Positions 5,357 through 45,628 of a DNA stretch of 64,000 nt are shown here, piece after piece. This DNA is from an uncultured Gammaproteobacteria bacterium. GTDB lineage: Bacteria; Patescibacteriota; Microgenomatia; Levybacterales; UBA12049. Location: positions 26,579 through 90,578 of the forward strand of contig CAYWPH010000001.1 of NCBI GenBank assembly GCA_964460145.1, written 5' to 3'. Under the pieces are notes generated by a model, which was given only the letters and a program-made list of their open reading frames with translations, made no database searches and was not told where the DNA came from. Numbering within the stretch: the first letter of the stretch is position 1; the number at the start of each line of letters is the position of its first letter. The translations under genes and the position numbers were made by a program.

Positions 5357-6109
5357 TTATTTACCTTGTCTTCTGCCCGTTTGATAGAAAAATTCAATTC
5401 CTTTAACTACGTCACCATTGTCCATGTCTGGAAAATACTTTTCGGGGATAAAATAAAGCACTGTATTTTTGCCATTAATCCATCCTAAATCTGATGTTCT
5501 TAATTCGGATGTTCTAATAATCAAATCTGCTGATGGAATTACTCCATTCCCGTCTCTTAAGGAATGCAACAGTTCTGAAGTTATTTCAACATTCTTGTCT
5601 AATTTTTTTGCTTTATTTAATATTCTGATCAGTTGGTCTTCTCCACCAAAATCAAGTGCAGCGCAAACTATTTGTCCTGTATTCTTACTTGTTTTTTTCT
5701 CAACGTCTATAATTTTATCTACCAATGTTTTTGGCAACCTATCTCTTCTTCCAAGATGAATAAATCTTGAGTTATTGTCCATTAGTTCGCCAACATATTT
5801 TGTTAACATAAGTTCGAAAAGACTCATAAGTCCTTTTATTTCCTTTTCATTTCTTTTCCAATTATCTGAAGAAAATCCCCAAATTCCTACTATTTTTACC
5901 GGAAGCGGTCTCATGCTTCTTAAAAGTTGAATTATTACATCAAGCCCTTTTTTATGTCCCCAAATAGTAGGTTTTCCTCTCTCTTTTGCATACCTTCTAT
6001 TTCCATCGGGAATTATGAAGATAAACTGAGGAAAGTTTTCTTTTGGAACTTTATTAAGAGCGGGAAACTCGCTGTAAATATCCGTTTTTTTACGCCTGAG
6101 TGAAATCAT
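5357..6109 (-). CDS. uppS: Undecaprenyl diphosphate synthase (cis-prenyltransferase)
   Basis: IIPDGNRRYAKERG is the DGNRRWA UPPS motif; size about 250 aa. Confidence 0.85.
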   Translation of the reverse strand: MISLRRKKTDIYSEFPALNKVPKENFPQFIFIIPDGNRRYAKERGKPTIWGHKKGLDVIIQLLRSMRPLPVKIVGIWGFSSDNWKRNEKEIKGLMSLFELMLTKYVGELMDNNSRFIHLGRRDRLPKTLVDKIIDVEKKTSKNTGQIVCAALDFGGEDQLIRILNKAKKLDKNVEITSELLHSLRDGNGVIPSADLIIRTSELRTSDLGWINGKNTVLYFIPEKYFPDMDNGDVVKGIEFFYQTGRRQGK

Positions 6110-9263: not shown

Positions 9264-9737
9264 ATGGTTATATTTATTAACGGTTCAATAAATGCAGGAA
9301 AAACTACCGTAGCAGATATTTTAGTTAAAAAGATTCCTAATACTGCCCACGTTGATATAGATATGCTGCGATTTTTTATAACATGGATGCCACTTGATGA
9401 ATCAATTCCCATTAATTTAGAAAATGCCGCCCTAGTAATAAAAAACTTTGTAGAAAAAGGTTTAAATGTTGTGGTAACTTATCCTATTTCTCAAAAAAAC
9501 TACGAGTTTTTAATGGAGAAACTTAAAGATTTAAAGGACAAAATTTATTTTTTTACTTTAAATCCTCAAATGCAAACTATTCTTAACAGGGGAGTAATGT
9601 CGGATGCAGAAAGAGAAAGAGTAAGGTATCATTACAAAATTGAAATTAATAAACCCACGTTTGGAGTTATAATTGATAGCACGGGTAAGACTCCTGAGCA
9701 AACTGCGCAAGAGATGCTAAAATTATTAAGAAAGTAA
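9264..9737 (+). CDS. P-loop kinase, chloramphenicol-phosphotransferase-like (CPT/AAA_33 family)
   Basis: N-terminal IFINGSINAGKTT resembles the CPT IILNGGSSAGKS P-loop; size about 157 aa. Confidence 0.55.
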   Translation: MVIFINGSINAGKTTVADILVKKIPNTAHVDIDMLRFFITWMPLDESIPINLENAALVIKNFVEKGLNVVVTYPISQKNYEFLMEKLKDLKDKIYFFTLNPQMQTILNRGVMSDAERERVRYHYKIEINKPTFGVIIDSTGKTPEQTAQEMLKLLRK

Positions 9738-12618: not shown

Positions 12619-15522
12619 TTAAATCGAATTTAGAAGTGTTGAGCAAAGCATTTTATATTCACAATTTTTACAAAATATTGATTTTGAACATACGAAACTA
12701 CTTTGAGAGATTTCTTTAACTTTTTCTAAAATATATTGTTTAGTTTTATCTAGTTGTAATTGATTTCTTTGAGTGGAAAGTTTTGTATTTGTTTCTATGT
12801 AATGCAAAGATAGGATTAGATTTTGAGGATCAATATTAAAAGGTTTTTCTAAAATTTCTTTTGCAGCCAGAGCATAAAAACTTAACTGTTTATTGTCAAT
12901 TAAATCCTTTTGAGTTAACATATTTTGTCCGGTTTTATAATCAATTATCTCTAATTTTCCACTCTTTAGTTTATCAATTCTATCTATTCTTCCCGTAACT
13001 CTTAGATTATCAATATTGAATTGAAACGGTTTTTCTAAAGCAATCGGTAAGTTGTCTTTATTAAAATTATCTCTTAAGTATTTAAAGATATTTTTTTTGG
13101 CTTTTATTAAAGCTTTTCTCTCATGTTCTTTGCTTGAATATCCTTCGTTTATCCAGTCCAATTTAAAAAGCTTTATTGAATCTTTGATATTCATTTTTTC
13201 TCCATTGATCCAGCTTTGATAGAAATCTCTCAAAACGAGATGAATACTTGTTCCAAAACTTTGTGCCGCAGTAGGAATTGTTGGAATTTTTAAGATAAAT
13301 TTAAGTTTATAATGAAGGGGACATATTTCAAATGCTTGAATATGAGAATATGAAATATAATCTATTGGAATATTTTTAGAGCTAGCTTTTTCTTCAACCA
13401 CCTCTTTTTGTGACCATTCGATTAAAGATAATTGAGTTTCTTTATTTTTAATCTCTTTATTTAATATTTTTTCAACTTCTTTTTGGCCTAAAGCTTCATA
13501 TATAAAAGGGGAAAGTTTTCTATCCCTTTTTTCCTCACTATAATAGTTTGCTGCAGAAAAAAATAACATATCTCTTGTCCTGGTCATTCCTACATAAAAA
13601 AGTCTTCTCTCTTCTTGTAAATGATAATCTCCAGTTGGCAGTATTTCTTTAATAAGTTTTTCTGGAATTGGTATTTTTTCTCTTCTTTCTCTGGTAGGAA
13701 ATCTTTGAGAAACAAGGTTAACCAAAAATACAACAGGAAACTCAAGTCCTTTGCTTGAATGAACTGTTAAAATGTTTACTGCGTTATTTTCTGACCAGTC
13801 AGTGTCAGAAGCCAAAGGACTTTCTCCCATTTGCATTGATAAATCTATCCAGTCAACTACTTCATAAACACTTGCAGTTTTATGCTGCGTCTCATAGGTT
13901 TTTAGTTTATCAAAAAGCTTTGCAATATTTTTTGCTATTAATTCTTCTTTTAAAGTTTTATATTCCAAAATGCTTTTAATTAAGCCTGAGTCTTCCAGAA
14001 AATAATATAAAATTTGTCCTGCTGTTTGTTTTGGTATAAGTTTTAGGTGCTTTTTTATCATTTTAGTCAGTGTTTTAAATTTTTCTTTTGATTTTTTCTT
14101 AACAACTAATTCATCTATGTGTTCTAGGGTTTGAAAAAGAGAATAATTTTTTCTTTTCATAAAATTTAAAAGCACTGCTAAATCCACGGCATCAAAATCA
14201 AAAACTGACATATTTAAAACCCTGTATAAAGAACTTGTATCTTCAAAGCTATACAACACTTTAAGATAGGAGATTAAATCTTTTATTTCTTCCTGATGAA
14301 AAAGTCTTCCGGGACCTAGAAATTGATAAGGAATCTTTGCTCGTTGTAAACTTCTGGTAAAACTATCTGCATGACCATTTGCTCTTACCAGGATTGCAAA
14401 ATCTTTGTAATCATATTTTTTACCATCGTCATAAATTTGTTTAATTTTACTTACAACAGTTTCTGCTTCATCTTCAACTCTTTGTTTATAAATCAATTCT
14501 GTTTTTGCTCCTTCAATATTTCTTACAGAAATTAGCCTTTTATTTATTTTTTGTTTTATCTCGAGTCGGTCTGGATTATTGTTTTGAATAAGATTATATG
14601 ATTTATCCAATATTTCCTTTGTAGATCTATAGTTGTTAACAAGAGAAATTATTTTTGCTTTGGGAAATCTTTTTTTGAATTGGAGTATGTTGGAAATTGA
14701 ACTTCCTCTAAATCTATAAATTGATTGGTCATCATCTCCAACAACATTAATATTTTGTCTTTTACCAGCTAACAATATTACAAGTTGGTTTTGAGCAAAA
14801 TTGGTATCTTGGAATTCATCTACTAAAATATATTTAAACATTTCCTGATATTGTTTTAGAATATTTTTTCTAGTTCTAAAAAGTTTTAGAGTGTTAGAAA
14901 TTAAATCTGAAAAATCCATTACACTTTCTTTTGCTTTTAGATCTTCGTAGGTTTTAAAGGCATGGGAGAGCTCAATATATTTTTTATATTCATCCTTGTC
15001 TTTTTTAATTTCTTTATTTGTTTTTACAAATTCAATATAATCATTTGGCAAAATATCTTCATCTTTTAGTCTTGAGAAGTGTTGCAATATTGCCTCTAAA
15101 AATTTATTTGGATTACCAAGGGGACGGAAATAATTAAGTTTTAGTTTGAAAAGGTTTTCTTTTAAAAACAGAACACTTTCTGCTTCTGTCATTAATTTAT
15201 ACGATGGGTTAAGTCCGATGTGAATACTTTCAGATCTTAAAACTCGATCGCAAAAAGAATGGAAGGTTGATATCCACATTTGAGTATATCCATATGGCAT
15301 TGCCTGATCAACTCTCTCTTCCATTTCAAATGCGGCTTTTTCCGTAAAGGTTAATGCAAGAATTTGGGAAGGGTTAATATTTTTCTTTAAAACAAGATGT
15401 TTTATTCTCTCAGTTATTACAGTAGTTTTGCCGGTACCTGCTCCTGCAATAATTAGTAATGGACCATCACCAAACAAAATAGCACTTAGCTGATTTTTAT
15501 CCAAATTAATACCAGCCTTCAT
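12619..15522 (-). CDS. UvrD/PcrA-like SF1 helicase fused to a C-terminal PD-(D/E)xK nuclease with a 4-Cys Fe-S cluster (AddB/Cas4-like)
   Basis: Walker A AGAGTGKTT and motif II DEFQDTN. The C-terminus has RIDRID...EIIDYKTG plus CPLHY...FCKNCEYKMLC, a C-x2-C-x5-C pattern. Confidence 0.8.
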   Translation of the reverse strand: MKAGINLDKNQLSAILFGDGPLLIIAGAGTGKTTVITERIKHLVLKKNINPSQILALTFTEKAAFEMEERVDQAMPYGYTQMWISTFHSFCDRVLRSESIHIGLNPSYKLMTEAESVLFLKENLFKLKLNYFRPLGNPNKFLEAILQHFSRLKDEDILPNDYIEFVKTNKEIKKDKDEYKKYIELSHAFKTYEDLKAKESVMDFSDLISNTLKLFRTRKNILKQYQEMFKYILVDEFQDTNFAQNQLVILLAGKRQNINVVGDDDQSIYRFRGSSISNILQFKKRFPKAKIISLVNNYRSTKEILDKSYNLIQNNNPDRLEIKQKINKRLISVRNIEGAKTELIYKQRVEDEAETVVSKIKQIYDDGKKYDYKDFAILVRANGHADSFTRSLQRAKIPYQFLGPGRLFHQEEIKDLISYLKVLYSFEDTSSLYRVLNMSVFDFDAVDLAVLLNFMKRKNYSLFQTLEHIDELVVKKKSKEKFKTLTKMIKKHLKLIPKQTAGQILYYFLEDSGLIKSILEYKTLKEELIAKNIAKLFDKLKTYETQHKTASVYEVVDWIDLSMQMGESPLASDTDWSENNAVNILTVHSSKGLEFPVVFLVNLVSQRFPTRERREKIPIPEKLIKEILPTGDYHLQEERRLFYVGMTRTRDMLFFSAANYYSEEKRDRKLSPFIYEALGQKEVEKILNKEIKNKETQLSLIEWSQKEVVEEKASSKNIPIDYISYSHIQAFEICPLHYKLKFILKIPTIPTAAQSFGTSIHLVLRDFYQSWINGEKMNIKDSIKLFKLDWINEGYSSKEHERKALIKAKKNIFKYLRDNFNKDNLPIALEKPFQFNIDNLRVTGRIDRIDKLKSGKLEIIDYKTGQNMLTQKDLIDNKQLSFYALAAKEILEKPFNIDPQNLILSLHYIETNTKLSTQRNQLQLDKTKQYILEKVKEISQSSFVCSKSIFCKNCEYKMLCSTLLNSI

Positions 15523-23475: not shown

Positions 23476-24651
23476 ATGGCAAGAGTAAAAATAAGTGAAT
23501 ACAAAGCTAAACAACTTGTCTATAAACATTTAGGCTTTTCCTCTAATCTTATTTCTTTAAATCTAGATAATCCTTCTGCATTAGATAATCTAGATCCTAA
23601 AAAAAGCTATGCTATTAAGGTTGATCAGGGAGTTAAAGGAAGACTTAAAAAAGGATTAGTTGCTTTGGATAAATCATCTCAAGAGGTAAAAACTATAATT
23701 GATTCTTATAAAAAACTTGGGTTTAATTCTTTTTTAATTGAAGAGTTTGTTCCTCATGCAGGCTCTCAGGAAAAATACATATCAATAGAGAGAGTTAAAG
23801 ATGGAAAATTGATTTTATATTCCAATAAGGGTGGAATTGATATTGAAAAAAATATTGAAAACGTAAAGAAAGTGATTATTAAAGACGATAACAATCTTAA
23901 AGAGATTGCAAATTATTTAGAAGTAAGTACAGAGTTTTTGGAAAAAATAATTAATCTTTATGACGAGCTTTATTTCTCCTTTTTAGAAATTAATCCATTG
24001 GTAATTAAAGATAAAAACATATACCTTCTTGATCTTGCAGTAGAAGTTGATAGCACAGCAGAGTTTTTTGTAAATGGGCTTTGGGAAGCTGGGGATTTTG
24101 TTTCAGTAAATGCAAAAACAAAAGAAGAAGAGGAAATAATAAATCTATCAGCTAAAAGCCAAGCTGCATTTAAGCTTGATGTTCTAAATCCAAATGGGAG
24201 TATCTTCATGCTTTTATCTGGTGGAGGAGCAAGTATTGTTTTAGCAGATGAGGTGCAAACCCAAGGGTTTAGTAAGGATCTTGCAAACTATGGTGAATAT
24301 AGCGGAAATCCCAGTCAAGAGGAAACATATATTTATACAAAAAATTTATTAAGCCTACTTTTAAAATCTAAAGCAAATAAAAAAGTTTTAATAATAGGCG
24401 GAGGCGTTGCTAACTTTACGGATATAAGAATTACTTTTAAAGGAATTGTAAAAGCTCTGGAGGAAGTTAAAGATGATCTTAAAAAACAAGAAATTAAAGT
24501 TTTTGTAAGAAGAGGAGGTCCTTATCAAAGGGCAGGATTAAAAGATATGGAAACCTTTTTAGAAAAAGAAGATTTTTTGGGAAAAGTATCCGGACCAGAG
24601 ATGGTTTTAACTGACATTGTTTTATATGCATTAAATTATTTAAAAAAATGA
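23476..24651 (+). CDS. aclB: ATP-citrate lyase beta-type subunit (ATP-grasp, SucC-like)
   Basis: Matches the ACLY N-terminal half: FLIEEFVPH, LYFSFLEINPLVI, LDLAVEVDSTA, LANYGEYSGNPSQEETY, FKGIVKAL, VFVRRGGP. Confidence 0.85.
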   Translation: MARVKISEYKAKQLVYKHLGFSSNLISLNLDNPSALDNLDPKKSYAIKVDQGVKGRLKKGLVALDKSSQEVKTIIDSYKKLGFNSFLIEEFVPHAGSQEKYISIERVKDGKLILYSNKGGIDIEKNIENVKKVIIKDDNNLKEIANYLEVSTEFLEKIINLYDELYFSFLEINPLVIKDKNIYLLDLAVEVDSTAEFFVNGLWEAGDFVSVNAKTKEEEEIINLSAKSQAAFKLDVLNPNGSIFMLLSGGGASIVLADEVQTQGFSKDLANYGEYSGNPSQEETYIYTKNLLSLLLKSKANKKVLIIGGGVANFTDIRITFKGIVKALEEVKDDLKKQEIKVFVRRGGPYQRAGLKDMETFLEKEDFLGKVSGPEMVLTDIVLYALNYLKK

Positions 24652-26441
24652 TAGACATAGAAAAAATAAGAAAAAATGAGGGCAAAATAATTACGGTAGG
24701 AAGTTATCCTGCAATAATTCAATCTATTTTAGATTTTGACTATCTAGGCGGTAAAAAAACATCAACAGTTTCTGCAATTATTGCAACAGGAAGAAAATTT
24801 GAGAGATATTTTTGGGGCAAAAAGGAAATTCTTATCCCAGTATATTCTTCTGTTGACGTTATTCCAGATTCCAAAAAGAAAAATTTAACATTTTTTCTTA
24901 ATTTAACCTCAGCAAGAAGAATCTTATCTTCTACAAAAAATTTACTCGAAAGCATACCTTCGCTTTTAGGAGGCGTAATTTTTGCAGAAAATGTGCCGGA
25001 AAAACACGCAATAGAGTTATATAACCTTTCTCAAAAAACAAATAAGTTCATAATTGGTCCCGCAAGTGTAGGCATGGTTATTCCAAATGTTTTTAAACTG
25101 GGTGCAATAGGTGGAATAGATGCAAATCAGTTAGTAGATTCATCACTTTTTACCCCTGGAAACATTGCTGTATTTTCTGCATCAGGTGGTATGACAGGAG
25201 AGCTAATTAGAATAGTTGCTCAAAATAATAAAAATATTTCATTCTCTTTGTCTTTTGGCGGAGATAGATTTCCCATTACCTCACCAAAAGATGCATTTAT
25301 TGCTGCTCAAAATGATCCAGAGACAAAAGTGATTTGTTACTTTGGAGAACTTGGTGGAATTGATGAATATGAGTTAGCAGATCTTATTAAAACAAAAAAA
25401 GTAACTAAATCTGTCTTTTGTTTTATAGCAGGAAGTATTTCTGAAATTTTTGAAACTCCTCCACAATTTGGTCATGCAAAGGCAATGGCAAAAAACAGAA
25501 ATGAAAGTGCCAAAGAAAAAAAAGAAGCACTTAAAGATGTGGGAGCAATTGTTGCCGATACTTTTTCAGAGTTTGTTGAGCTTATAAGAGATCTTGACTA
25601 TGAAGATGTGAAAAGTAAACAAAATTATAGTAAAATACAAGTAGATATGGAAAATAGAAAACAAGCACTGATTGCAACAACTATATCAAGCGATGAAAAT
25701 GGCCAGGTAAAAATACTCGGAGAAGATTTATTAAGTTTTGCAAAAAATAATTCCTTTGCCTTTATTGTGGGATCTTTATTTTTAGGCAAAAAATTAAAAT
25801 CTAGAGAACTAAGTGAATTCATAGATTTTACTCTTAGATTATTGGTTGATCACGGACCTTATGTATCTGGTGCCGTAAATACAATTATTGCGTCCCGTGC
25901 CGGAAAAGATTTAGTTTCATCTCTTTCCAGCGGACTTCTTACCATAGGGCCAAGATTTGGAGGGGCTATTAATCAGGCAGCTCAAAATTGGCTTATAGGT
26001 GTATCTGAAAATAAAAATCCTGTTGAGTTTGTAGAAGAGTTTGCTAAACAAAAAATTTATATTTCAGGCATTGGACATAAGAAATATAGTTTGGATATGC
26101 CAGATCCAAGAGTTGTGGAAATACTTAAATTCTCTGAAAAACTTTCAGAAAAAAAATTTACATCTTTTGCAAAAAAAGTAGAAAAAATTACCACAGGAAA
26201 GAAAGCAAATTTAATTTTAAATATTGATGGCGCTATTGCTGCAGTTTTGTTAGATATATTATCTGAAAAAGAGGGTTATTCAAAAAGTCAGTTACAAGAA
26301 TTAATAGATACAGAATTTTTTAATGCTTTATTTGTGCTATCTCGTTCTGTTGGATTTATTGCGCACTTTTTAGACCAGAAAAGATTAGATGAAGGACTTT
26401 TCAGGCTTGATGAAGATATGGTAGCTTCGGTTGAAAAATAA
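24648..26441 (+). CDS. aclA: ATP-citrate lyase alpha-type subunit (CoA-binding/SucD-like plus citryl-CoA lyase domain)
   Basis: YFWGKKEILIPVY, catalytic His in PQFGHAKA, and the ACLY-specific segment VDHGPYVSGAVNTIIASRAGKDLVSSLSSGLLTIGPRFGGAI...GFIAHFLDQKRL. Confidence 0.85.
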   Translation: MIDIEKIRKNEGKIITVGSYPAIIQSILDFDYLGGKKTSTVSAIIATGRKFERYFWGKKEILIPVYSSVDVIPDSKKKNLTFFLNLTSARRILSSTKNLLESIPSLLGGVIFAENVPEKHAIELYNLSQKTNKFIIGPASVGMVIPNVFKLGAIGGIDANQLVDSSLFTPGNIAVFSASGGMTGELIRIVAQNNKNISFSLSFGGDRFPITSPKDAFIAAQNDPETKVICYFGELGGIDEYELADLIKTKKVTKSVFCFIAGSISEIFETPPQFGHAKAMAKNRNESAKEKKEALKDVGAIVADTFSEFVELIRDLDYEDVKSKQNYSKIQVDMENRKQALIATTISSDENGQVKILGEDLLSFAKNNSFAFIVGSLFLGKKLKSRELSEFIDFTLRLLVDHGPYVSGAVNTIIASRAGKDLVSSLSSGLLTIGPRFGGAINQAAQNWLIGVSENKNPVEFVEEFAKQKIYISGIGHKKYSLDMPDPRVVEILKFSEKLSEKKFTSFAKKVEKITTGKKANLILNIDGAIAAVLLDILSEKEGYSKSQLQELIDTEFFNALFVLSRSVGFIAHFLDQKRLDEGLFRLDEDMVASVEK

Positions 26442-26515
26442 TTCCCCAAAAATTAATATTTGATATCTCTTAAAAACAGGAGTAAAATTATCTACGCAAT
26501 TGAGGATATTAATTA

Positions 26516-27334
26516 ATGAAACATTGCGATTGTATACTTTGCCAATTTAATAATCCGAAACCCACGGCAACAGCGGTAATCATAAAAGATCAAAAACTTC
26601 TAGTTGGAAAAAGAAATCTAAAGGGAGAGCCATTTTTTGGAGAGTATGATTTTTTTGGAGGTTTTCTTCAAGAAGGCGAAAATCCGGAAGATACACTGAA
26701 ACGTGAAATAAAAGAAGAGCTTGGTGTAGATTCTGATCTTACGTTTTTGGGAACTTTTACAGGATCGTCTGATTATCAAGGTTACGGATTTCCAGTCATA
26801 ACTTTTGTATATATAACAGAACTTCTAGGTGATATTGTCTTGGATAAAAAAGAGAATTCAGAGATGGAATGGATTCCAATAAAAGAAATTAAAACTATAG
26901 CTTTTGACTCAAATCAAAAAATTTTAAAATACATAAAAGATAAGTTTGAATATGATCTAAAAACTGTAAAGAATTTAGTTTATCAGCTTGATCCAAGTGC
27001 TAATGTTAACGAACAGTCTTTATATAAAGCTATTTTAAATGGATATCTTAGTAAAGTTGAAGATAAGGGTAAGTTAGTAGGTATAGGATGGATTTTCCCG
27101 AGAAGAACACTACTTCGCAAACAAGCAGTAGTTGAGGATATGATTGTAAACGGTGATTACCGCGGACAAGGTCTCGGAGAAAAAATTCTGAGGGATTTAA
27201 TTAAATGGGCAAAAAAAGAGGGCGTTGAGGTTATTGAACTAACAACCAATCCCAAAAGGGTTGCAGCAAACTCCCTATACAAAAAAGTCGGCTTCAAGTT
27301 GCATGAAACAAATCACTATCTTCTTAAATTATAA
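26516..27334 (+). CDS. Nudix hydrolase - GNAT acetyltransferase fusion protein
   Basis: Nudix box GGFLQEGENPEDTLKREIKEELG; C-terminal GNAT motif (GDYRGQGLGEKIL...KVGFK). Confidence 0.7.
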   Translation: MKHCDCILCQFNNPKPTATAVIIKDQKLLVGKRNLKGEPFFGEYDFFGGFLQEGENPEDTLKREIKEELGVDSDLTFLGTFTGSSDYQGYGFPVITFVYITELLGDIVLDKKENSEMEWIPIKEIKTIAFDSNQKILKYIKDKFEYDLKTVKNLVYQLDPSANVNEQSLYKAILNGYLSKVEDKGKLVGIGWIFPRRTLLRKQAVVEDMIVNGDYRGQGLGEKILRDLIKWAKKEGVEVIELTTNPKRVAANSLYKKVGFKLHETNHYLLKL

Positions 27335-27380
27335 TTTATTTTTATATTCAGAAATAAACTGATATAATTACCCCCAAGTT

Positions 27381-27542
27381 TTTGACAAATAAAATATTTA
27401 GTGTTAGAATAAGCAAGTCAATGAAAAACTTAGTTATTAGTTTTGAAGATAAGTGCAAGAAGAACCTTTCAATGAGGGGTTTTGTCTTGTCGTAAATTTA
27501 GACCCAAAAGTAACGAGACGCCCCTCAGTAGAGGGGTTTTTT
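27381..27542 (+). promoter_or_regulatory. Leader-peptide attenuator A: promoter, 24-aa Lys-codon leader ORF (27421-27495), hairpin 1, intrinsic terminator (27519-27542)
   Basis: Promoter is -35 TTGACA, a 17-nt spacer and -10 TAGAAT. The ORF encodes MKNLVISFEDKCKKNLSMRGFVLS, with Lys codons at 27451-27462. GAGGGG (27474-79) can pair with either CCTT (27465-68) or the terminator arm CCCCTC (27521-26). The terminator is CCCCTC-AGTA-GAGGGG plus T6. Confidence 0.6.
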
Positions 27543-27653
27543 AATGGGAAAAACAAATATGGCAACAATAAATAGAAATGTAAAACTTATCCGTCGGGTA
27601 AAAACAGTTGATTATTTTGCAACTGTAGATTTTAGCATACTAAGGAGGTCATT

Positions 27654-28991
27654 ATGATTATTCTTAAATTTGGAGGCACATCTGTCAGTAGTACTAAAAG
27701 CCTAAAAACAATAGTAGATATTGTAAAAAGACAAAAAGATAAAAATCCTATTGTCGTAGTCTCAGCTGTTTCTGGTGTAACAGATTTATTACTATCTCTT
27801 TTTAAAAATGAAGGAAATAGAGAAACTATTCTTAAACAAATAGAAAATTTACATTCTAATTTAATAGAAGATTATTATGGAAAAGTTCCAATTGAACAAA
27901 GAGGTTATATTTTAGATTGTTTAAAAAAAGTAAACAAACTTTTAAATGGAAATGTAAATAATTTAGAACTTTGCGATGAAATTATTTCATTTGGAGAAAT
28001 TATGTCTTCATATATCATTGCAAATATATTAAATGGGTCTAATATTAATGCAAGACAAATCATTGCAACTTCATTAATTGTAACCAATGACCATTTTGGT
28101 TCTGCTGAATTTTTACCCAGTGAAACACAACAACAATCTAAAAAAATATTGATACCTCTTGTTAAAAAAGGGATAGTTCCAGTGGTTACTGGTTTTATTG
28201 GTCAAACAAAAAATGGAAAAATTACTACACTTGGAAGAGGCGGATCGGATTATACAGCAGCAATACTTGGATTTTGTCTCTCTGCTAAAGAAATTCAAAT
28301 ATGGACTGACGTAGATGGAATTTTTACTTCTGATCCTAAGCTTATCAAGCAAGCAAAAGTGATTTCAGACGTTTCATATAAAGAGGCCTCAGAGCTTGCT
28401 GCATTTGGCGCAAAAATTCTCCATCCAAGAACAATTCGCCCAGCAATTTCTTCCGGAATTCCAGTTAGAGTTCTAAATACTTTTAATCCAACTGCCAAAG
28501 GGACTATTATTAAAAATAGAGATAGACAAAAAAGTCATATTGTTGCAATAGCATCAAAAAGAAAAATTACACTTGTTACTATTTACTCAACAGATATGCT
28601 CTTGAGTAAAGGATTTTTAGTAAGAGTTTTTTCTATTTTTTCTAAATACAATATTTCAATCGATCTTGTTAGCGTTTCAGAAGTAAGTATATCAGCGTCT
28701 TTAGATAATGATGAAAATTTACAAAATGCTATAAAAGAACTGGAAAAATTTGCAACGATCACAACAACTCGGCAACTTGGAATGATATCTTTAATTGGAG
28801 AAAAAATTGTAAATGTTAAAAATATTTTAAAAGAGATTTTCTCAATTTTAGACAACTCAAACATTGAAGTAAAAATGATTTCTCTTGGCGCAACAGACAT
28901 AAATATTAGTTTAGTTTTACCATCTTTAAAAATAGATAAAAGTGTAAACTTATTACATAAAGCACTAATTAACAAAGGAGAGATTTTATGA
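27654..28991 (+). CDS. lysC: Aspartate kinase
   Basis: MIILKFGGTSV amino-acid kinase N-terminus with C-terminal ACT domains; preceded by an RBS. Confidence 0.9.
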   Translation: MIILKFGGTSVSSTKSLKTIVDIVKRQKDKNPIVVVSAVSGVTDLLLSLFKNEGNRETILKQIENLHSNLIEDYYGKVPIEQRGYILDCLKKVNKLLNGNVNNLELCDEIISFGEIMSSYIIANILNGSNINARQIIATSLIVTNDHFGSAEFLPSETQQQSKKILIPLVKKGIVPVVTGFIGQTKNGKITTLGRGGSDYTAAILGFCLSAKEIQIWTDVDGIFTSDPKLIKQAKVISDVSYKEASELAAFGAKILHPRTIRPAISSGIPVRVLNTFNPTAKGTIIKNRDRQKSHIVAIASKRKITLVTIYSTDMLLSKGFLVRVFSIFSKYNISIDLVSVSEVSISASLDNDENLQNAIKELEKFATITTTRQLGMISLIGEKIVNVKNILKEIFSILDNSNIEVKMISLGATDINISLVLPSLKIDKSVNLLHKALINKGEIL

Positions 28992-29737
28992 AAATAGGAT
29001 TGATTGGTTACGGTCACATGGGTCAGGAAATAGAAGCTTTAGTAAAAGAGCAAGGGCATTCTATTACCTCAATCAGTTTTAGAGAGAGAAGCTTAGGTTT
29101 GGATAAAGAGGGAATTAAAAATTCCGATGTGGTTATCGATTTTAGCTCACCTGAAATAATTATTTCTAATATAAAAGCTGTTATGGAGTTAAATAAACCC
29201 ATCGTTATCGGAACAACCGGTTGGTATCAAGACATTAAAAAAGTACAAAAAATTGTAAAACAATATAAAGGAAGTTTAATTTATGGACAGAATTTTTCTA
29301 TTGGCGCAAATATATTTTTCTCTATAGTCTCATATGCAGGTAGTCTTTTATCTCAATACAAAGATTATGATGTTTTTGGTATTGAAACTCACCACAGCGG
29401 TAAAAAAGACAGCCCCAGTGGTACTGCAAGAAAACTAGCTGAAATTATCATGCAAAACTTTCCTTCAAAAACAAAACTTCAATTAGAAAGACTTGATAGA
29501 AAAATACAAAAAGAAGAACTGCATTTTGTATCGGTAAGAGGAGGAAGAAATTTCGGCCGGCATGAAATTGTATTTGATAGTCCAGCTGATGAAATTGTGC
29601 TTACTCATCAGGTTTGGAGTAGAAGAGGTTTTGCACAGGGTGCTTTACTTTCCGCGCAGTTTATTTTGTCAAAAAAAGGCTTTTATAACTTCAACGATAT
29701 TTTTAATAATACAAAAAGGCGGGTGAGAACAAAATGA
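28988..29737 (+). CDS. dapB: 4-Hydroxy-tetrahydrodipicolinate reductase
   Basis: GYGHMGQ NAD-binding site and the IETHHSGKKDSPSGTA DapB signature. Confidence 0.85.
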   Translation: MKIGLIGYGHMGQEIEALVKEQGHSITSISFRERSLGLDKEGIKNSDVVIDFSSPEIIISNIKAVMELNKPIVIGTTGWYQDIKKVQKIVKQYKGSLIYGQNFSIGANIFFSIVSYAGSLLSQYKDYDVFGIETHHSGKKDSPSGTARKLAEIIMQNFPSKTKLQLERLDRKIQKEELHFVSVRGGRNFGRHEIVFDSPADEIVLTHQVWSRRGFAQGALLSAQFILSKKGFYNFNDIFNNTKRRVRTK

Positions 29738-30618
29738 AAAAATTTACAGGTGCAATAACAGCTCTTACAACACCTTTTAAAAAAGATGGGTCAATAGATA
29801 TTGAATCTTTAAAATCCTTAGTTAAATTTCAATTAAGGGAAGGTATTGACGGTATTGTTCCTTGCGGTTCAACAGGAGAGGCGGCAACTTTAAATGATGA
29901 AGAATATCAACTCGTTGTAAAAACCGTAGTTGAACAAGTTAACGGTAGAGTACCGGTAATAGCGGGTGCAGGGAGTAACGACACATTAAAAGCAGTTCAT
30001 TTTTCTTTACTTTCCAAAAAAATGGGAGCAGACGCTCTTTTACATGTTACACCATACTACAATAAACCAACTGTAAACGGTTTAGTTGCTCATTACAAAG
30101 CAATTGCTAAAGCAGTTGATATGCCTATTGTTTTATACAATGTTCCTGGAAGAACAGGATTAAATGCATCAGCGGATACAACTTTAAAAATTGCAAAAAA
30201 TGTCCCGCAGGTAGTTGCGGTAAAAGAAGCATCGGGAAATTTAACACAAATGATGGAAATTGTAAAAAAAGCTCCATCTTATTTTAGTGTTTTATCAGGA
30301 GATGATATTTTAACCTTGCCACTTATTAGCGTAGGAGGACACGGTTGTATATCTGTTGTTTCCAATGAGGTTCCAAAATTCTTTAGTCAATTAATTGCTT
30401 ATGCACTGAATGGAGACTTTAAAAAAGCAAAACAAATGCATTACAAACTACTGGATTTAATGAATGTGAACTTTATCGAAACCAATCCTCTTCCTGTTAA
30501 AGCAGCACTTTCTTTAATGGGAAAAATTGAAGAGGTATTTAGGTTGCCTTTAGTTCCAATGGAAGAGAAAAATAAACTTGTACTTAAAGATGTTTTGAGG
30601 GACTTAGATTTAATATGA
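29734..30618 (+). CDS. dapA: 4-Hydroxy-tetrahydrodipicolinate synthase
   Basis: GIVPCGSTGEAATL and the DapA/NAL family Lys region VAVKEASGN. Confidence 0.85.
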   Translation: MKKFTGAITALTTPFKKDGSIDIESLKSLVKFQLREGIDGIVPCGSTGEAATLNDEEYQLVVKTVVEQVNGRVPVIAGAGSNDTLKAVHFSLLSKKMGADALLHVTPYYNKPTVNGLVAHYKAIAKAVDMPIVLYNVPGRTGLNASADTTLKIAKNVPQVVAVKEASGNLTQMMEIVKKAPSYFSVLSGDDILTLPLISVGGHGCISVVSNEVPKFFSQLIAYALNGDFKKAKQMHYKLLDLMNVNFIETNPLPVKAALSLMGKIEEVFRLPLVPMEEKNKLVLKDVLRDLDLI

Positions 30619-31661
30619 GAAAAATATCTGTTGGAATTTTAGGAGCAACCGGAAATGTGGGACAGCGGTTTGTGCAACTTTTGGATAATCATCCGTGGTT
30701 TGAAGTTAAATATCTTTGTGCGTCTGAAAAAAGTTATGGGCAAAGGTATGGAGATATTGTAAATTGGAAAGTTTCTCCAAAAATACCTGAAAACGTAGCT
30801 AGCATGAGGCTTCGTTTATGTGTGCCTAATTTTAAAGCACGGGTTGTATTTTCTGCGCTTGATTCATTAGTTGCCGGTCCAATTGAGGAAGATTTTGCCA
30901 AAAGTGGATACATTGTTATTAGTAATTCCAAAAATCACAGAATGGATAAAGATGTTCCCCTTCTTATTCCAGAAGTAAATCCAGAGCACCTAGATTTAAT
31001 ACCAGTTCAAAGGAAAAGATTAGGAGGGAAAGGTTTTATTGTCACAAACCCAAATTGTACAACGATAGGTCTTACTATGGCGCTTAAACCATTGCAAGAT
31101 GCATTTGGAGTCAGCAAAGTCATAGTCACCACAATGCAGGCATTATCTGGAGCAGGATATCCAGGAGTCCCATCTTTAGATGCAATTGATAATGTAGTGC
31201 CATATATAGGAGATGAAGAAGAAAAAGTTGAAACAGAACCTTTAAAACTACTAGGTAGTTTAGGAAATGGGAAAATAAGCAATGCAAATATTGCAATAAG
31301 TGCACATTGTAATCGTGTTGCAGTTAGGGATGGACATTTAGAATCAGTAACGGTTGAACTAATTAAAAAAGCCGGTATTGAAGAGATTTTAAAAGTTTTT
31401 AGAGATTTTAAAAGTATTCCTCAAAAATTAAATCTTCCATCAGCCCCCCAAAATCCCATTATTGTTCGCATGGAAAATGACAGGCCCCAGCCTGTATTAG
31501 ACAGGGATATAAATAACGGAATGTCGGTAAGTATTGGAAGAGTCAGGCAGTCAAGTATTTTTGATATTAAATTTACTCTTTTGGTCCATAATACTATACG
31601 TGGTGCCGCCGGAGCAGCTATACTAAATGCAGAACTTATGAAAGCAAAAAATATTATTTAA
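30615..31661 (+). CDS. asd: Aspartate-semialdehyde dehydrogenase
   Basis: [13 protein letters not shown]-binding site; active-site region [11 protein letters not shown]; HCNRVAV. Confidence 0.85.
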
Positions 31662-31670
31662 AAAACATTA

Positions 31671-31828
31671 TTGACAATTTTAGTCCTATAATATAAAATT
31701 ACAATATTATGAATTATATCTTTAATTTAGTAAATAAAGAGACAAAAAAGAACCTCTTAACGAGGGGATTTGTCTTGTAATAAATTTAATTAATGAAACA
31801 GGATAAGCCCCTCTTCGAGGGGTTTTTT
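31671..31828 (+). promoter_or_regulatory. Leader-peptide attenuator B: promoter, 23-aa Lys-codon leader ORF (31709-31780), intrinsic terminator (31806-31828)
   Basis: Promoter is -35 TTGACA plus -10 TAAAAT. The ORF encodes MNYIFNLVNKETKKNLLTRGFVL. The CCTC/GAGGGG hairpin and the CCCCTC-TTC-GAGGGG plus T6 terminator are near-identical to attenuator A. Confidence 0.6.
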
Positions 31829-31840
31829 AGTGAAAAAAAT

Positions 31841-32857
31841 ATGAGAGAAAGGTTATCTTTTCAGTATCGGGAAAGTGAAAATGCCGACTTTATTGCATGG
31901 CAATTTAATTCTTGTGGTTCAGTATATACGGCAGCTGCCATAGACAATAATAGAGTTCTTGTTGGAGGAAGTCTTTGGCAAAGAAAATTTGTTCCGTTTT
32001 CCGATGATTCAAGAACGCAGCAGGGAGTAGTGCAAGCTGTTGGTGGTCAAGAATGGCATCCAGAAACAATAAAGTTTTCTTCGATGGTAAATTCTGTCTT
32101 GCCTTTTAGGGACAGATACATTGTTTGTTGTAAATATGGAGAACAAGCATATAGCGTTATAGGTCAAGATCTGCAAGTTCAAAAAACCGCAGATGATTCA
32201 AGAGGTAATGGTGTTTATAACGCTTTGATTACTAGCGAAGAAGAGCTTGTTTCTGCAGTTAGAAATGGCGGCTTGTCATTTCGTAATCCATTTACTCTTG
32301 ACTTAATTGATTATGTTAGCTTATCCGGAAATGTGCGTTTATGGTCAGTGGCTCAACTGCTGGAAGGCAGGTTGATTGCTGGAGATTACGCGGGTATGAT
32401 TTATATAGTTAAAGATGGGAAATTAGAATCTGTATTTAATCTTGGTAATCAGTCAAGACAAGAAGTGCCTGAATTTCAGCAAAGATTCGAGCCGTCTGTA
32501 TTTGGACTTTCAGTATCAGACGCGGGAAATGTAGCAGCTGCGGTTAGATGGGGAGGTATATACTGGTTTAATCGGGAAATGGAGCTTGAGAGGTCTTTAA
32601 TTATTCCACATGAGATATCAACTGTTGAGTATGTTCCCGAGTCAGAGGATCTTTTAATTGGAACAAGATCCGGGTCTCTTTTGCACTTAAGAGATTTAGA
32701 CAATGAAATAATGCTTACAAGATTATTATCTATAAAACCGGCTTTGCAAAATGATAACTCTATTTGGTCTATTTCTTTTGATCTAGATAAAAGGCCAATT
32801 GTTGCTTTTGCAGATGGGCAAGTAATAAAAATTAGTCAATTAGCGCAAAGAGATTAG
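31841..32857 (+). CDS. Hypothetical beta-propeller-like protein (atypical composition), first gene of the lysK operon
   Basis: About 8 repeated blade-like segments (e.g. RVLVGGSLW, YIVKDGKL, LLIGTRSGSLLHL, IVAFADGQVIKI). GC is higher than the neighbours. The listed start 31793 overlaps the terminator, so ATG 31841 is preferred. Confidence 0.5.
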   Translation: MRERLSFQYRESENADFIAWQFNSCGSVYTAAAIDNNRVLVGGSLWQRKFVPFSDDSRTQQGVVQAVGGQEWHPETIKFSSMVNSVLPFRDRYIVCCKYGEQAYSVIGQDLQVQKTADDSRGNGVYNALITSEEELVSAVRNGGLSFRNPFTLDLIDYVSLSGNVRLWSVAQLLEGRLIAGDYAGMIYIVKDGKLESVFNLGNQSRQEVPEFQQRFEPSVFGLSVSDAGNVAAAVRWGGIYWFNREMELERSLIIPHEISTVEYVPESEDLLIGTRSGSLLHLRDLDNEIMLTRLLSIKPALQNDNSIWSISFDLDKRPIVAFADGQVIKISQLAQRD

Positions 32858-32902: not shown

Positions 32903-34429
32903 ATGTTTTGGGCAGATAAAACAGCAGACGAAATAATAAAATCGGGAAAATATAAACCATATTGGGTTGACGACATGAAAACCCCATCTGGCAGAGTTCA
33001 TGTGGGAGCTTTACGTGGAGTAGTAGTTCATGATCTTGTATACAAAGCACTTCTTAAAAAAGGAGTAAAAGCAAAATACACATATGTTTTTGAAGACCAC
33101 GACCCAATGGATGATATACCATCATATTTAGATAGGGAAAAATTTGAGCAGTATTTAGGTATGCCTCTTTTTAAAATTCCCTCCCCGGTTGAAGGATTTG
33201 AGAATTATGCGAGATATTACGCAGCAGATTTTCAAAAAGTATTCAATGCAATAGGATGTGAGCCGGAAATTATTTGGACTAAAGACTTATACACAAGCGG
33301 AAAAATTAATCCAATGATTAAAGATGTTTTGGATAACGCAGCTGAAATTAGAAAAATATATGAAGAAATGTATGATAAAAAATTGCCAGATAACTGGTAT
33401 CCGTTTCAATTGTATTGTCCAAATTGCGGTAAGGTTTCAACAACCCAAGTTTCCGATTGGGACGGAGAGCTAGTTACCTTTGAATGTCTGGTAGATAAAG
33501 TGAAATGGACAAAAGGCTGCGGGGAAAAGGGAAAAGCCTCGCCATTTAGCAGTGAGAAAGGAATTGTCGGAAAACTTGTTTGGAAAGTTGATTGGCCAGC
33601 AAAATGGAAAGCAATAGGAATAACGATTGAGGGAGCAGGAAAAGATCATATGTCCAAAGGAGGATCACATGATTTAGCAAGTCAAGTTTGCAAAAGAGTT
33701 CTGCATTACCCTATTCCTTATCCAATACCTTATGAGTGGATTTTAATTGGTGGTCGAAAAATGTCTTCTTCCAAAGGAGTGGGAATTGTAGCCTCAGACA
33801 TGCTTGAAATTCTGCCTCCAGAATTAATTCGATTTTTAATTGTAAGAATTAAAGTAAATACACAGATTAATTTTGATCCTGCAGAACCCAATACAATTGC
33901 AAATCTATTTGATGATTATCAAAAGTCGGCTGATGCATATTTCAATAAAGGAGATAGTGATCTTGCCCGAATTTTTGAACTTTCACAAATTGAAGGAAAA
34001 ATTAAACATCCTCCATCTGTTAGATTTTCACTTCTAACGCAATGGGTGCAGATGCACAATATGGAAGAAGAAATTAAAAAAAATAATTTAGGGGACTGGG
34101 TAGTATATGCAAAAAACTGGGTAGAAAAATATGCGCCTGAAAGTGAAAGATTTACTGTGCAAAAAGATACGCCATCACAAGTTAGTAAGTTGTCCAACGA
34201 ACAAAGAAAAGCTCTAAAGCAAATTGCAGATAGCCTTGATAAAAAATGGACACCCGAAGAATTGCAAACGAGAGTTTACGATATAGGAAAAAATTTAGGC
34301 TTAAACGGCAAACAAACTTTTGCGGCAATTTATCTATCTCTGCTTGGAAAAGACCATGGTCCAAAAGCGGCGTGGTTGATACTATCTTTGGAGAAAGAGT
34401 TTGTTAAAAAAAGATTTAATGAGGTCTAG
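32903..34429 (+). CDS. lysK: Class I lysyl-tRNA synthetase
   Basis: MFWADK N-terminus; HIGH-like HVGA; KMSKS motif as KMSSSKG; about 510 aa, typical of LysRS-I. Confidence 0.75.
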   Translation: MFWADKTADEIIKSGKYKPYWVDDMKTPSGRVHVGALRGVVVHDLVYKALLKKGVKAKYTYVFEDHDPMDDIPSYLDREKFEQYLGMPLFKIPSPVEGFENYARYYAADFQKVFNAIGCEPEIIWTKDLYTSGKINPMIKDVLDNAAEIRKIYEEMYDKKLPDNWYPFQLYCPNCGKVSTTQVSDWDGELVTFECLVDKVKWTKGCGEKGKASPFSSEKGIVGKLVWKVDWPAKWKAIGITIEGAGKDHMSKGGSHDLASQVCKRVLHYPIPYPIPYEWILIGGRKMSSSKGVGIVASDMLEILPPELIRFLIVRIKVNTQINFDPAEPNTIANLFDDYQKSADAYFNKGDSDLARIFELSQIEGKIKHPPSVRFSLLTQWVQMHNMEEEIKKNNLGDWVVYAKNWVEKYAPESERFTVQKDTPSQVSKLSNEQRKALKQIADSLDKKWTPEELQTRVYDIGKNLGLNGKQTFAAIYLSLLGKDHGPKAAWLILSLEKEFVKKRFNEV

Positions 34430-36495: not shown

Positions 36496-36707
36496 TTCTT
36501 GACATTGTAATAAAAATATTACAATATAAAACTAATTAACGTTCCTCACTAATTTAGTGAACGAATTTATAAATTAAAAGGGAGGTGAATTGACAATGGC
36601 AAAGAAAAAGAAGAAGAAGAAATAGTTGGTAAGCAATTTGGAGCATTACCAATTATTACCAATTGATCAATTGGTGTCCCTCACCCTAGTGGTGAGGGAT
36701 TTTTTTT
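36496..36707 (+). promoter_or_regulatory. secA leader: promoter, RBS-driven poly-Lys mini-ORF MAKKKKKKK (36596-36625), stem-loops, intrinsic terminator (36678-36707)
   Basis: -35 TTGACA at 36496. The mini-ORF has a strong ribosome-binding site GGAGGTG 8 nt upstream and codons GCA AAG AAA AAG AAG AAG AAG AAA TAG. The terminator is CCCTCACC-CTAGT-GGTGAGGG plus T8. Upstream palindromes TTGGTAA...TTACCAA and CCAATTGATCAATTGG offer competing structures. Confidence 0.55.
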
Positions 36708-44559: not shown

Positions 44560-44876
44560 GATATGAAATGGCCGAATTTATTAAAATCTACTTTATTTTT
44601 TACGTCAAATTCTACTCCCTCTTTTTCAAGCATCTGTTTTTGAATACCTGGGCCTCCAAAAGCGTATCCAGATGATATTTCTCCTTTTGAATTAATAACT
44701 CTGTGACAGGGAATGTTTTTAGGATCTTTATTTGCATGCAGGGCAAATCCTACAACTCTTGGGTCAATTGATAAAAGTCTTGAAATTGCTCCATAAGTTG
44801 TAACTTTTCCCCTTGGAACCGATGCCACTAAATAGTAAACTTTATCAAACGTATTCATTTTATAAGAATATACCAA
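44556..44876 (-). CDS. Methylated-DNA-protein-cysteine methyltransferase DNA-binding domain protein (MGMT/Ogt-like)
   Basis: PCHRV active-site motif (NIPCHRVINSKGEIS); about 106 aa. Confidence 0.75.
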   Translation of the reverse strand: MVYSYKMNTFDKVYYLVASVPRGKVTTYGAISRLLSIDPRVVGFALHANKDPKNIPCHRVINSKGEISSGYAFGGPGIQKQMLEKEGVEFDVKNKVDFNKFGHFIS

Positions 44877-45628
44877 AAAATTATTGCAGCAACAATCCTA
44901 TAAATTCCAAAGGAAATAAAGCTATGATTTTGCAAAAATCTCAAAAAAAGTTTTACTACAATAACTGCTACTATAAATGATCCGATAAATCCTGTTGCCA
45001 GAATTGACCATTCATAAGTGTTAAATGAAAAATTGCTTTTTAACATATTAAGTGTAGTTGCGCCAAGCATTGTCGGGACTGCCAGTAAAAATGAAAATTC
45101 TGCAGCTGCTTTTCTTTTGGTTCCCAAAAAAAGTGCAGCAACAATCGTTGAGGCAGACCTTGATACTCCCGGAATAACGGCAATAGATTGGAAAATTCCT
45201 ATTATAAATGCATTCTTGAGAGTAATTTTTTCTATAGAATCAACATGATGATCTTTTTCTTTATACAAAAGCTCAAGGATAATGAGTAAAATTCCTCCGA
45301 TAAGTAAAGCCAAAAGAGTAATATAAAGGTTTCCTAAAAGAAATGATTTGATAAACTTAAAAAGCACAAAGCCTACAATAGCTGTTGGTATAAAGGCCGC
45401 TAAAACCCTTTTCCAAATTTCTTTGCTTTGTATAAAACTTTTAAAATATAAAGCAACAATTGAAAGTATTGCTCCAAGCTGAATGACTATTTCAAAGTCT
45501 TTTACAAAATCCGTTTGTCTTATTTTTAAAATTTCCAAGGTGAGTATCAGGTGTCCTGTTGAGGATATGGGTAAAAATTCTGTTATTCCTTCAACAATAG
45601 AAAGAATAATTGCGGCGAGATAGTCCAT
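44855..45628 (-). CDS. uppP: Undecaprenyl-diphosphatase (BacA/UppP)
   Basis: LSIVEGITEFLPISSTGHLIL signature; 8 TMs. Confidence 0.85.
   Translation of the reverse strand: MDYLAAIILSIVEGITEFLPISSTGHLILTLEILKIRQTDFVKDFEIVIQLGAILSIVALYFKSFIQSKEIWKRVLAAFIPTAIVGFVLFKFIKSFLLGNLYITLLALLIGGILLIILELLYKEKDHHVDSIEKITLKNAFIIGIFQSIAVIPGVSRSASTIVAALFLGTKRKAAAEFSFLLAVPTMLGATTLNMLKSNFSFNTYEWSILATGFIGSFIVAVIVVKLFLRFLQNHSFISFGIYRIVAAIIFWYILIK

Follow-up and report, generated by a model that had tools for sequence, protein, structure and literature searches.

How is lysine biosynthesis controlled in an uncultured, Levybacteria-like bacterium of the candidate phyla radiation (CPR)/Patescibacteria? The control of lysine genes in bacteria has been attributed mainly to L-box riboswitches, T-boxes and protein regulators. 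We analysed a stretch of 64,000 nt from such an organism (the window; assembly GCA_964460145.1, contig CAYWPH010000001.1, forward strand, 26,579 to 90,578), in which the operon lysC-dapB-dapA-asd (27654-31661, identified with Pfam) is preceded by a leader at 27382-27542. All coordinates are those of the window, and features are on the + strand unless stated otherwise. A first-pass annotation, made from the sequence alone, had read the leader as a putative attenuator with Lys codons, and our analyses agree with this: it is most probably a ribosome-mediated (leader-peptide) transcription attenuator, sensing how much charged tRNA-Lys is available. It is also well supported that this leader belongs to a previously unannotated family of lysine-specific leader-peptide attenuators in Levybacteria-like CPR bacteria, which occurs twice in the window.

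The promoter of leader 1 (27382-27410) consists of TTGACA at 27382-27387, a 17-nt spacer and TAGAAT at 27405-27410 with an extended -10 TG, and it agrees with the consensus at 11 of 12 positions. This bears out the sigma70-like promoter that had been annotated, as it is the top promoter-like site within the 2 kb scanned (26400-28400), and it is conserved among the homologous leaders. A second promoter-like site (TTTATA, a 16-nt spacer and TATAAT plus TG, at 27341-27368) lies about 40 nt 5' of the main promoter and is not conserved in the more distant leaders. The leader open reading frame (ORF) was found as annotated, with 24 codons and a TAA stop (27421-27495; ATG at 27421, TAA at 27493-27495), encoding the peptide MKNLVISFEDKCKKNLSMRGFVLS. 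It contains the codons AAG TGC AAG AAG at 27451-27462, with Lys at 27451-27453 and 27457-27462. No Shine-Dalgarno (SD) sequence precedes this ORF, and its ATG is 10 nt past the -10 hexamer.

The RNA of the leader can form three competing helices. Region 1 (GCAAGAAGAACCTTTC, 27455-27470) is the partner of region 2 (GAGGGGTTTTGTCTTGT, 27474-27490) in an anti-antiterminator, helix 1:2 (-15.3 kcal/mol), and folding energies give region 2 an alternative partner in region 3 (ACGAGACGCCCCTC, 27513-27526), the 3' strand of the antiterminator, helix 2:3. The last 7 nt of region 3 are also the 5' arm of a perfect intrinsic terminator, helix 3:4, made of GCCCCTC-AGTA-GAGGGGT (27520-27537) and T6 (27537-27542), the whole spanning 27520-27542. 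The terminator and the GAGGGG:CCCCTC antiterminator of the first-pass annotation both held: against dinucleotide shuffles the terminator has an energy of -12.9 kcal/mol (z = -5.3) and the antiterminator, in which the first GAGGGG (27474-27479) is complementary to the CCCCTC of the terminator, one of -17.7 kcal/mol (z = -3.2). The leader as a whole folds better than all 200 of its 200 shuffles (z = -3.7). Hairpin 1 had been described as just CCTT with GAGG; the pairing with GAGGGG is correct, but that pairing is only the tip of a 16-bp helix 1:2 of which the AAG AAG codons are a part. Between the last Lys codon and region 2 there are 11 nt.

From this arrangement we infer a mechanism in which the ORF is translated and the leader responds to lysine. 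Transcription would start about 3-5 nt 5' of the leader ATG, and a ribosome would load on this near-leaderless RNA and trail the polymerase. With Lys-tRNA-Lys plentiful, the ribosome would pass the Lys cluster and reach the stop codon, which is located at region 2 (GAGGGG and a U-rich tract) or within it. It would then cover region 2, leaving region 3 (CCCCTC) free to pair with region 4 (GAGGGG and U6), and transcription would terminate at about 27542. With Lys-tRNA-Lys scarce, the ribosome would stall with a Lys codon in the A site and cover region 1, its leading edge just short of region 2. Regions 2 and 3 would then make up the antiterminator, letting the polymerase enter lysC-dapB-dapA-asd, or in relatives the operon that begins dapL-lysA-lysC. 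If there were no translation, region 1 (the Lys codons and CCUUU) would pair with region 2 and the terminator would form. All of the computationally testable features that define leader-peptide attenuators are present here, with the exception of a clear initiation signal.

Relatives of this locus were gathered through one metagenome scan and eleven exact-protein look-ups (LysC 55-96% identical; loci labelled L and a number), and copies of the leader were located by nhmmer and by a regular-expression scan in the fetched loci and in the window. The resulting set has 15 instances, 13 of them distinct, from 12 related metagenomic loci and from the window with its two copies. Two of the LysC relatives (P0009 and P0008, 76-79% identity) cluster at 90% identity with proteins labelled Candidatus Levybacteria, and a partial LysC match, 88% identical, carries the name Microgenomates group bacterium; these names place the window in the CPR/Patescibacteria. 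A LysC-alignment search of genome contigs had only distant phyla among the matches listed. The G+C content of the window is about 32%.

Each of the 13 distinct leaders was refolded up to region 4 with the footprint of a ribosome blocked. Masking with the last Lys codon in the A site gave the antiterminator alone in 12 of the 13, and masking with the stop codon there gave the terminator in all 13. A classical four-region attenuator would behave in this way, and the outcome is consistent with the earlier claim that a ribosome at the Lys codons favours the antiterminator. In 8 of the 13, the minimum-energy fold with no ribosome is helix 1:2 together with the terminator. At full length, the minimum-energy fold places helix 2:3 inside a helix of the Lys codons with the 3' arm and U-tract of the terminator. 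We treated this nested fold as thermodynamically possible but of no kinetic relevance to termination, since the U-tract is still part of the RNA:DNA hybrid when the decision is made.

The leader is always found directly upstream of lysine genes, and its 5' neighbours vary: they include a NUDIX-GNAT gene, a LysM gene, an aminotransferase, an AMP-binding enzyme and MurB. In the window, a fused NUDIX hydrolase and GNAT acetyltransferase (272 aa, 26516-27334) lies directly 5' of leader 1. Perhaps, then, what we describe is a coincidence, the ordinary terminator of the NUDIX-GNAT gene followed by a chance ORF in AT-rich DNA, since at the genome Lys frequency at least three Lys within five codons occur in about 6.6% of random 23-codon peptides. 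The Lys cluster by itself is indeed not significant; what makes the leader significant is that 13 distinct sequences, one of them a paralogue within the window, keep the entire arrangement. The promoter also sits between the upstream gene and the terminator, and the leader is retained behind a different upstream gene in L161, L164, L166, L168 and L169. A terminator belonging to the upstream gene is ruled out by this retention, and coincidence, effectively refuted by conservation, is extremely improbable.

The first-pass annotation had named homologous leaders that keep the hairpins while losing the Lys codons or the mini-ORF as the observation that would speak against attenuation. What we found is that the homologues retain an ATG, an uninterrupted frame and Lys codons clustered in that frame, in peptides that otherwise diverge. 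The leader ORFs are 16-24 codons long, the ATG is invariant in 13 of 13, and no lineage has a stop in frame 0 between the ATG and the Lys cluster; the other frames have 2-4 stops in most cases, and none in one frame of L168 and of L083. The distances from the ATG to the cluster are 24, 27, 30 and 54 nt, all multiples of 3, and therefore insertions and deletions have preserved the frame. The probability of the open frame under shuffling, as a product over lineages, is 0.002, which exaggerates the significance, since the lineages are not fully independent. All 15 instances have 3-4 Lys codons within 4-5 codons (KxKK, KKxKK or KKK), and this cluster is the sole conserved feature of the peptide, the remainder of which diverges (for example MICIVISTKKSKKPLS, MKSVTLISKKSKKPLA, MKIAVLSSRTANNVNGVNKKKGLS, MKTFNLVSKKAKKNLSQRGFVLA and MKNLIINFEKKFKKNSF). 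Within the clusters AAA and AAG interchange synonymously, with a preference for AAG, the Lys codon that is rare genome-wide, which also counts in favour of attenuation; helix 1:2 leaves out some of the conserved Lys codons. In 15 of 15, 10-12 nt separate the last Lys codon from the GAGGG of region 2. The stop codon is either next to GAGGG or overlapping it, or else 19-22 nt inside region 2, and a GC-rich terminator stem followed by T5-T7 is present in all instances.

The three competing helices are likewise found in every lineage. Across lineages helix 1:2, in which the Lys codons and CCUYU pair with GAGGGG and the U-rich tract, ranges from -11.5 to -16.6 kcal/mol, helix 2:3 from -13.5 to -21 kcal/mol and helix 3:4 from -7.3 to -11.7 kcal/mol. 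The distal strands of helix 2:3 vary by lineage and keep their complementarity (GUCUUG/CGAGAC, UCCUU/AAGGA, CUCUUU/AAAGAG, UUGUCUUG/CAGGAUAA, UUUGUCUU/AAGACAAA and AUUUCUUU/AAAGAAAU). Duplexes of each 2:3 strand with its own partner have a mean of -6.7 kcal/mol versus -4.7 kcal/mol for cross-lineage duplexes, and none of 20000 permutations was as good. Of the alignment cells of helix 2:3, 81% are paired, versus 51-62% with the partner slid, and for helix 1:2 the figures are 89.6% versus 48-67%. Covariation in related genomes had been proposed as a check on both helices, and in part the relatives supply it: the alternative helices persist with changed sequences, but strict covariation, considered below, is only modest.

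Could such an RNA work without translation? In an RNA switch of this kind the purine tract and GAGGGG/CCCCTC/GAGGGG would be the expression platform, a ligand, tRNA-Lys or an RNA-binding protein would be sensed, and the ORF would be incidental. The most conserved nucleotides of the leader, GAGGGGTTTTGTCTTG, are kept even where they are untranslated (as in L166 and L167, where a stop codon precedes them), the Lys codons double as a pairing strand, and the ORF has no SD sequence, all of which would suit a switch. However, the stretch of about 25-55 nt 5' of the Lys cluster is neither conserved in sequence nor consistently structured, and so offers no candidate aptamer; the ATG, the frame, the reading frame of the Lys codons and the placement of the stop are conserved across insertions and deletions; and there is no similarity to the L-box, the T-box or any Rfam riboswitch. 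No gene for an RNA-binding regulator was noticed consistently beside the leaders, whose neighbours were not examined systematically for one and whose upstream genes differ. We therefore regard a translation-independent switch as unlikely. It also seems improbable to us that the leader represents a very compact class of RNA switch, new and specific to Microgenomates, that responds to lysine or tRNA-Lys or is acted on by an as yet undescribed RNA-binding regulator, with the purine tract and GAGGGG/CCCCTC/GAGGGG doing the sensing and the ORF a by-product.

Leader-peptide attenuation depends on initiation at the leader ATG, and the window offers some indication of how this might occur. An SD-like motif is found in 16 of its 65 long ORFs, the other 49 being without one, and in many genes the ATG is preceded, at exactly 6 nt, by a TATAAT- or TACAAT-like hexamer (for example those starting at 9264, 34633, 35204 and 53936 on the + strand, and those at 12619..15522 and 44855..45628 on the - strand). 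This suggests that leaderless mRNAs are widespread in the host genome. In a milder reading, attenuation would proceed through obligatory near-leaderless initiation by 70S ribosomes, the first ribosome loading as the 5' end emerges from the polymerase, in place of the SD-led initiation of the classical enterobacterial leaders. In Deinococcus deserti, leader peptides are made from leaderless RNAs ahead of genes for amino-acid biosynthesis and tRNA synthetases (PMC4007540). The likeness is that those leader peptides also lack an SD sequence and are predicted to act in attenuation. The differences are that the RNAs there begin at the start codon or 1 nt away from it, versus a predicted 5' untranslated region (UTR) of about 3-8 nt here, that the main text of that paper does not mention lysine, and that the phylum is a different one.

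A number of points weigh against attenuation as we have set it out. The leader ORFs have no SD sequence and their ATGs are 9-14 nt past the -10 hexamer, versus 6 nt in the apparently leaderless genes, and therefore initiation would have to take place on the predicted 5' UTR of 3-8 nt, with an efficiency that we assume. The 13 leader sequences come from one narrow clade and are mutually non-independent. In masked folding, L169 gives no clean antiterminator with the ribosome on the last Lys codon, and with no ribosome the minimum-energy fold in 5 of the 13 is helix 2:3 nested in a helix 1b:4 (CCUYU with region 4). Since these five untranslated folds contain the antiterminator, the untranslated state is ambiguous. 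Strict covariation, counted on a sequence-based MAFFT alignment, is modest for helix 2:3, with 33 of 500 shuffles reaching the observed score, and no higher than in shuffles for helix 1:2 (219 of 500). Finally, the purine-rich Lys codons double as the pairing strand of helix 1:2, and so the conservation of AAGAAG and the bias to AAG, which makes up 16% of Lys codons in window genes (the rare one) versus 17 of 25 in the clusters, are confounded with RNA structure; both could be partly or wholly a structural constraint.

In the window, the operon does not begin directly after the terminator. The roughly 110 nt between terminator and lysC are not plain leader: they contain a 32-codon ORF (27559-27657) in which the first 7 codons of dapL (MATINRN) are fused in frame to about the last 25 codons of lysA. 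The lysA-derived part ends in IRRVKTVDYFATVDFSILRRSL, and the stop codon overlaps the ATG of lysC (ATGA). This was recognized by comparison with L163, L164 and L165, which have an intact dapL-lysA between the leader and lysC. On the sequence comparison, the ORF is a relic of an in-frame dapL-lysA deletion of about 2.4 kb in the window and its closest relatives, relative to those three loci; the window ORFs that were put through Pfam and NCBIfam included neither dapL nor lysA. In L164, L165, L083, L168 and L169 the leader precedes an operon with dapL and lysA, in either order, ahead of lysC. The retention of the leader ahead of both dapL/lysA-containing and deleted operons, with varied 5' neighbours, indicates that it is an ancestral 5' regulatory region of the lysine operon.

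The same region bears on whether the leader controls the operon at all. A strong promoter and a strong terminator about 125 nt apart are the typical anatomy of a small RNA (sRNA) gene, and the leader might be an independent small transcription unit, for an sRNA or a 24-aa peptide, with a constitutive terminator, the lysine genes being expressed by leaky readthrough or from another promoter, as the -10-like element of lysK, described below, might suggest. In relatives, however, the first structural gene begins about 15-45 nt past the terminator, and in the window the promoter scan gave no promoter-like site on the + strand from the terminator to lysC; readthrough is therefore required. The leader also always accompanies lysine genes despite its varied upstream neighbours, its antiterminator, mutually exclusive with the terminator and the stronger of the two, is conserved and co-evolves, and its peptide is not conserved outside the Lys cluster. 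A separate small unit is thus hard to credit, and attenuation of the lysine operon accounts better for these features.

A paralogous leader 2 was found at 31671-31829 by nhmmer (E = 3e-13, then 4e-17 with a larger alignment). Its promoter (31671-31699) has TTGACA, a 17-nt spacer and TAAAAT, again with 11 of 12 consensus positions, and its ORF (31709-31780, from the nhmmer match) has 23 codons and a TAA, encoding MNYIFNLVNKETKKNLLTRGFVL, with Lys at 31736-31738 and 31745-31750. Region 2 of this leader is GAGGGGATTTGTCTTG. In the antiterminator (31762-31813; -19.7 kcal/mol, z = -4.6) GAGGGG-A-TTTGTCTTGT pairs with ACAGGATAAG-CCCCTC, so that the partner strand of helix 2:3 is unlike that of leader 1 and yet still complementary. 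The terminator (31807-31828) is GCCCCTC-TTC-GAGGGGT and T6 (-11.7 kcal/mol, z = -3.5). The copy of leader 2 in L082 is identical. By the same logic as for leader 1, leader 2 would control a WD40-like gene and the gene for a class I lysyl-tRNA synthetase (LysRS).

The WD40-like gene (31841-32857) is the first after leader 2 and encodes a protein of 338 aa, which AlphaFold (predicted local distance difference test score 89) and Foldseek, with WD40 proteins as best matches, indicate to be a seven-bladed beta-propeller. It has no Pfam or NCBIfam family, and just 5 homologues were found among 5.8 billion sequences. The class I LysRS gene (lysK, 32904-34429, start ATG at 32904; TIGR00467, E = 1e-113) lies 46 nt 3' of the propeller gene and has its own TATAAT 9 nt before its ATG. 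Judging by this element, lysK appears to have its own promoter, and the extent of the control of leader 2 over it is uncertain. In L166 and L167, lysK is the next gene after asd, about 40 nt downstream and behind its own TATAAT-like hexamer. A WD40-like gene is found directly upstream of class I lysK in two lineages (the window and L171, 955-1980), the proteins being 41% identical. The homologue in L171 was rejected as a carrier of the leader, as it is preceded by a plain terminator alone, without a leader ORF.

A leader ahead of the LysRS neighbourhood is what would be expected for a sensor of charged tRNA-Lys, and dual control of lysine biosynthesis and of this neighbourhood fits such a sensor. 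The synthetase genes themselves differ among the related loci. L163 has a relic of a truncated class I lysK (MFWADGATDKIIN, then a stop) at 5545-5700, after asd, followed by a class II-type synthetase gene with tRNA_anti-codon and tRNA-synt_2 domains. This order of genes suggests that in L163 a class I LysRS was replaced by a class II enzyme. L169 also has a class II-type synthetase gene after asd.

Comparison with known regulatory RNAs confirmed that neither an L-box nor a T-box is present. With Rfam 15, no family reached its gathering threshold in the 64-kb window, L-box (RF00168) and T-box (RF00230) included; these two had no match at E <= 10 around either leader, and in 19 related loci neither they nor any other Rfam family was found at the gathering threshold. 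The leaders occupy the same niche as L-boxes and T-boxes, being terminator-containing 5' leaders of lysC, dap or lysK genes, and would sense the same physiological signal as a T-box, tRNA charging, but they are too short and too unstructured 5' of the terminator for either aptamer. Below threshold, there were matches to Phe_leader (RF01859; 19 and 18 bits versus 55) and Bacteroid-trp (RF01692; 21.4 versus 49). Membership in either family was rejected on these scores, the likeness being one of architecture only.

The closest parallel in design is with the classical leader-peptide attenuators, such as trpL, hisL, leuL, thrL, ilvL and pheL of E. coli, represented in Rfam by Trp_leader, His_leader, Leu_leader, Thr_leader and Phe_leader. 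They share with the leaders described here a promoter-proximal mini-ORF, clustered cognate codons in region 1, three competing helices ending in an intrinsic terminator, a stop codon positioned so that a terminating ribosome masks region 2, and downstream genes that make the cognate amino acid. The leaders here differ in their lysine specificity and CPR host, in having no sequence or covariance-model homology to the classical ones, and in an ORF without an SD sequence that starts a few nucleotides from the predicted transcription start. An aminoacyl-tRNA synthetase operon, pheST of E. coli, is also under leader-peptide attenuation. Leader 2 resembles it in preceding a unit with the cognate synthetase, here a class I LysRS, and as a consequence synthetase expression would respond to the charging of its own tRNA; it differs in the WD40-like gene between leader and lysK and in the apparent promoter of lysK itself.

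Lysine codons in a leader peptide may have a precedent. In Thermus thermophilus, Tsubouchi and colleagues reportedly described in 2005 a short leader peptide with Lys codons that is said to control a terminator ahead of the alpha-aminoadipate lysine cluster. That pathway differs from the diaminopimelate/DapL pathway here, the phylum is another, and no sequence homology is expected. Full-text searches of the literature found no lysine-codon leader peptide for an operon of the diaminopimelate pathway or for CPR bacteria. The mechanism itself is not new: it is textbook leader-peptide attenuation, and no principle is overturned.

We also scanned 167 loci and the window, on both strands, for an ORF with a Lys cluster followed by a terminator. 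This recovered family members together with two apparently chance in-gene matches, one unclear match in L053, and the ORF MAKKKKKKK of the window. This 9-codon ORF (36596-36625) lies in a region (36500-36705) with its own promoter, a structured 5' UTR and a strong SD sequence (GGGAGGTG); a strong terminator at 36676-36700 follows it, directly upstream of secA (36706). It was rejected as an attenuator since its terminator forms under every ribosome mask. The more distant lys operons L084-L096 (LysC 45-56% identical) were likewise rejected as family members, as their upstream regions are not homologous. Upstream of some lys operons with LysC of about 50% identity there are long inverted or alternative repeats (CCCGTTAGAGGC and, further along, GCCTCTAACGGG; L085 at about 1780-2040, and L087, L088 and L091 at about 1620-1880), which from their sequence may be a different regulatory RNA. 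Further upstream in the window, two adjacent genes (23476-26441) have ATP-citrate lyase/synthase domains (Citrate_bind, Citrate_synth_N, Ligase_CoA and Citrate_synt). The pair is conserved upstream in L161, L162, L165 and L166 and is unexpected for a reduced Patescibacteria genome.

The 13 leaders could be the starting set for a covariance model or a new Rfam family, which would improve the annotation of CPR genomes and flag genes of the lysine regulon such as the WD40-like gene, and they offer synthetic biology a compact lysine-responsive part. For the biology of these organisms, the finding suggests that a Levybacteria-like lineage that has kept lysine biosynthesis may gauge the charging of tRNA-Lys with the simplest ribosome-based sensor, duplicated beside its lysyl-tRNA synthetase.

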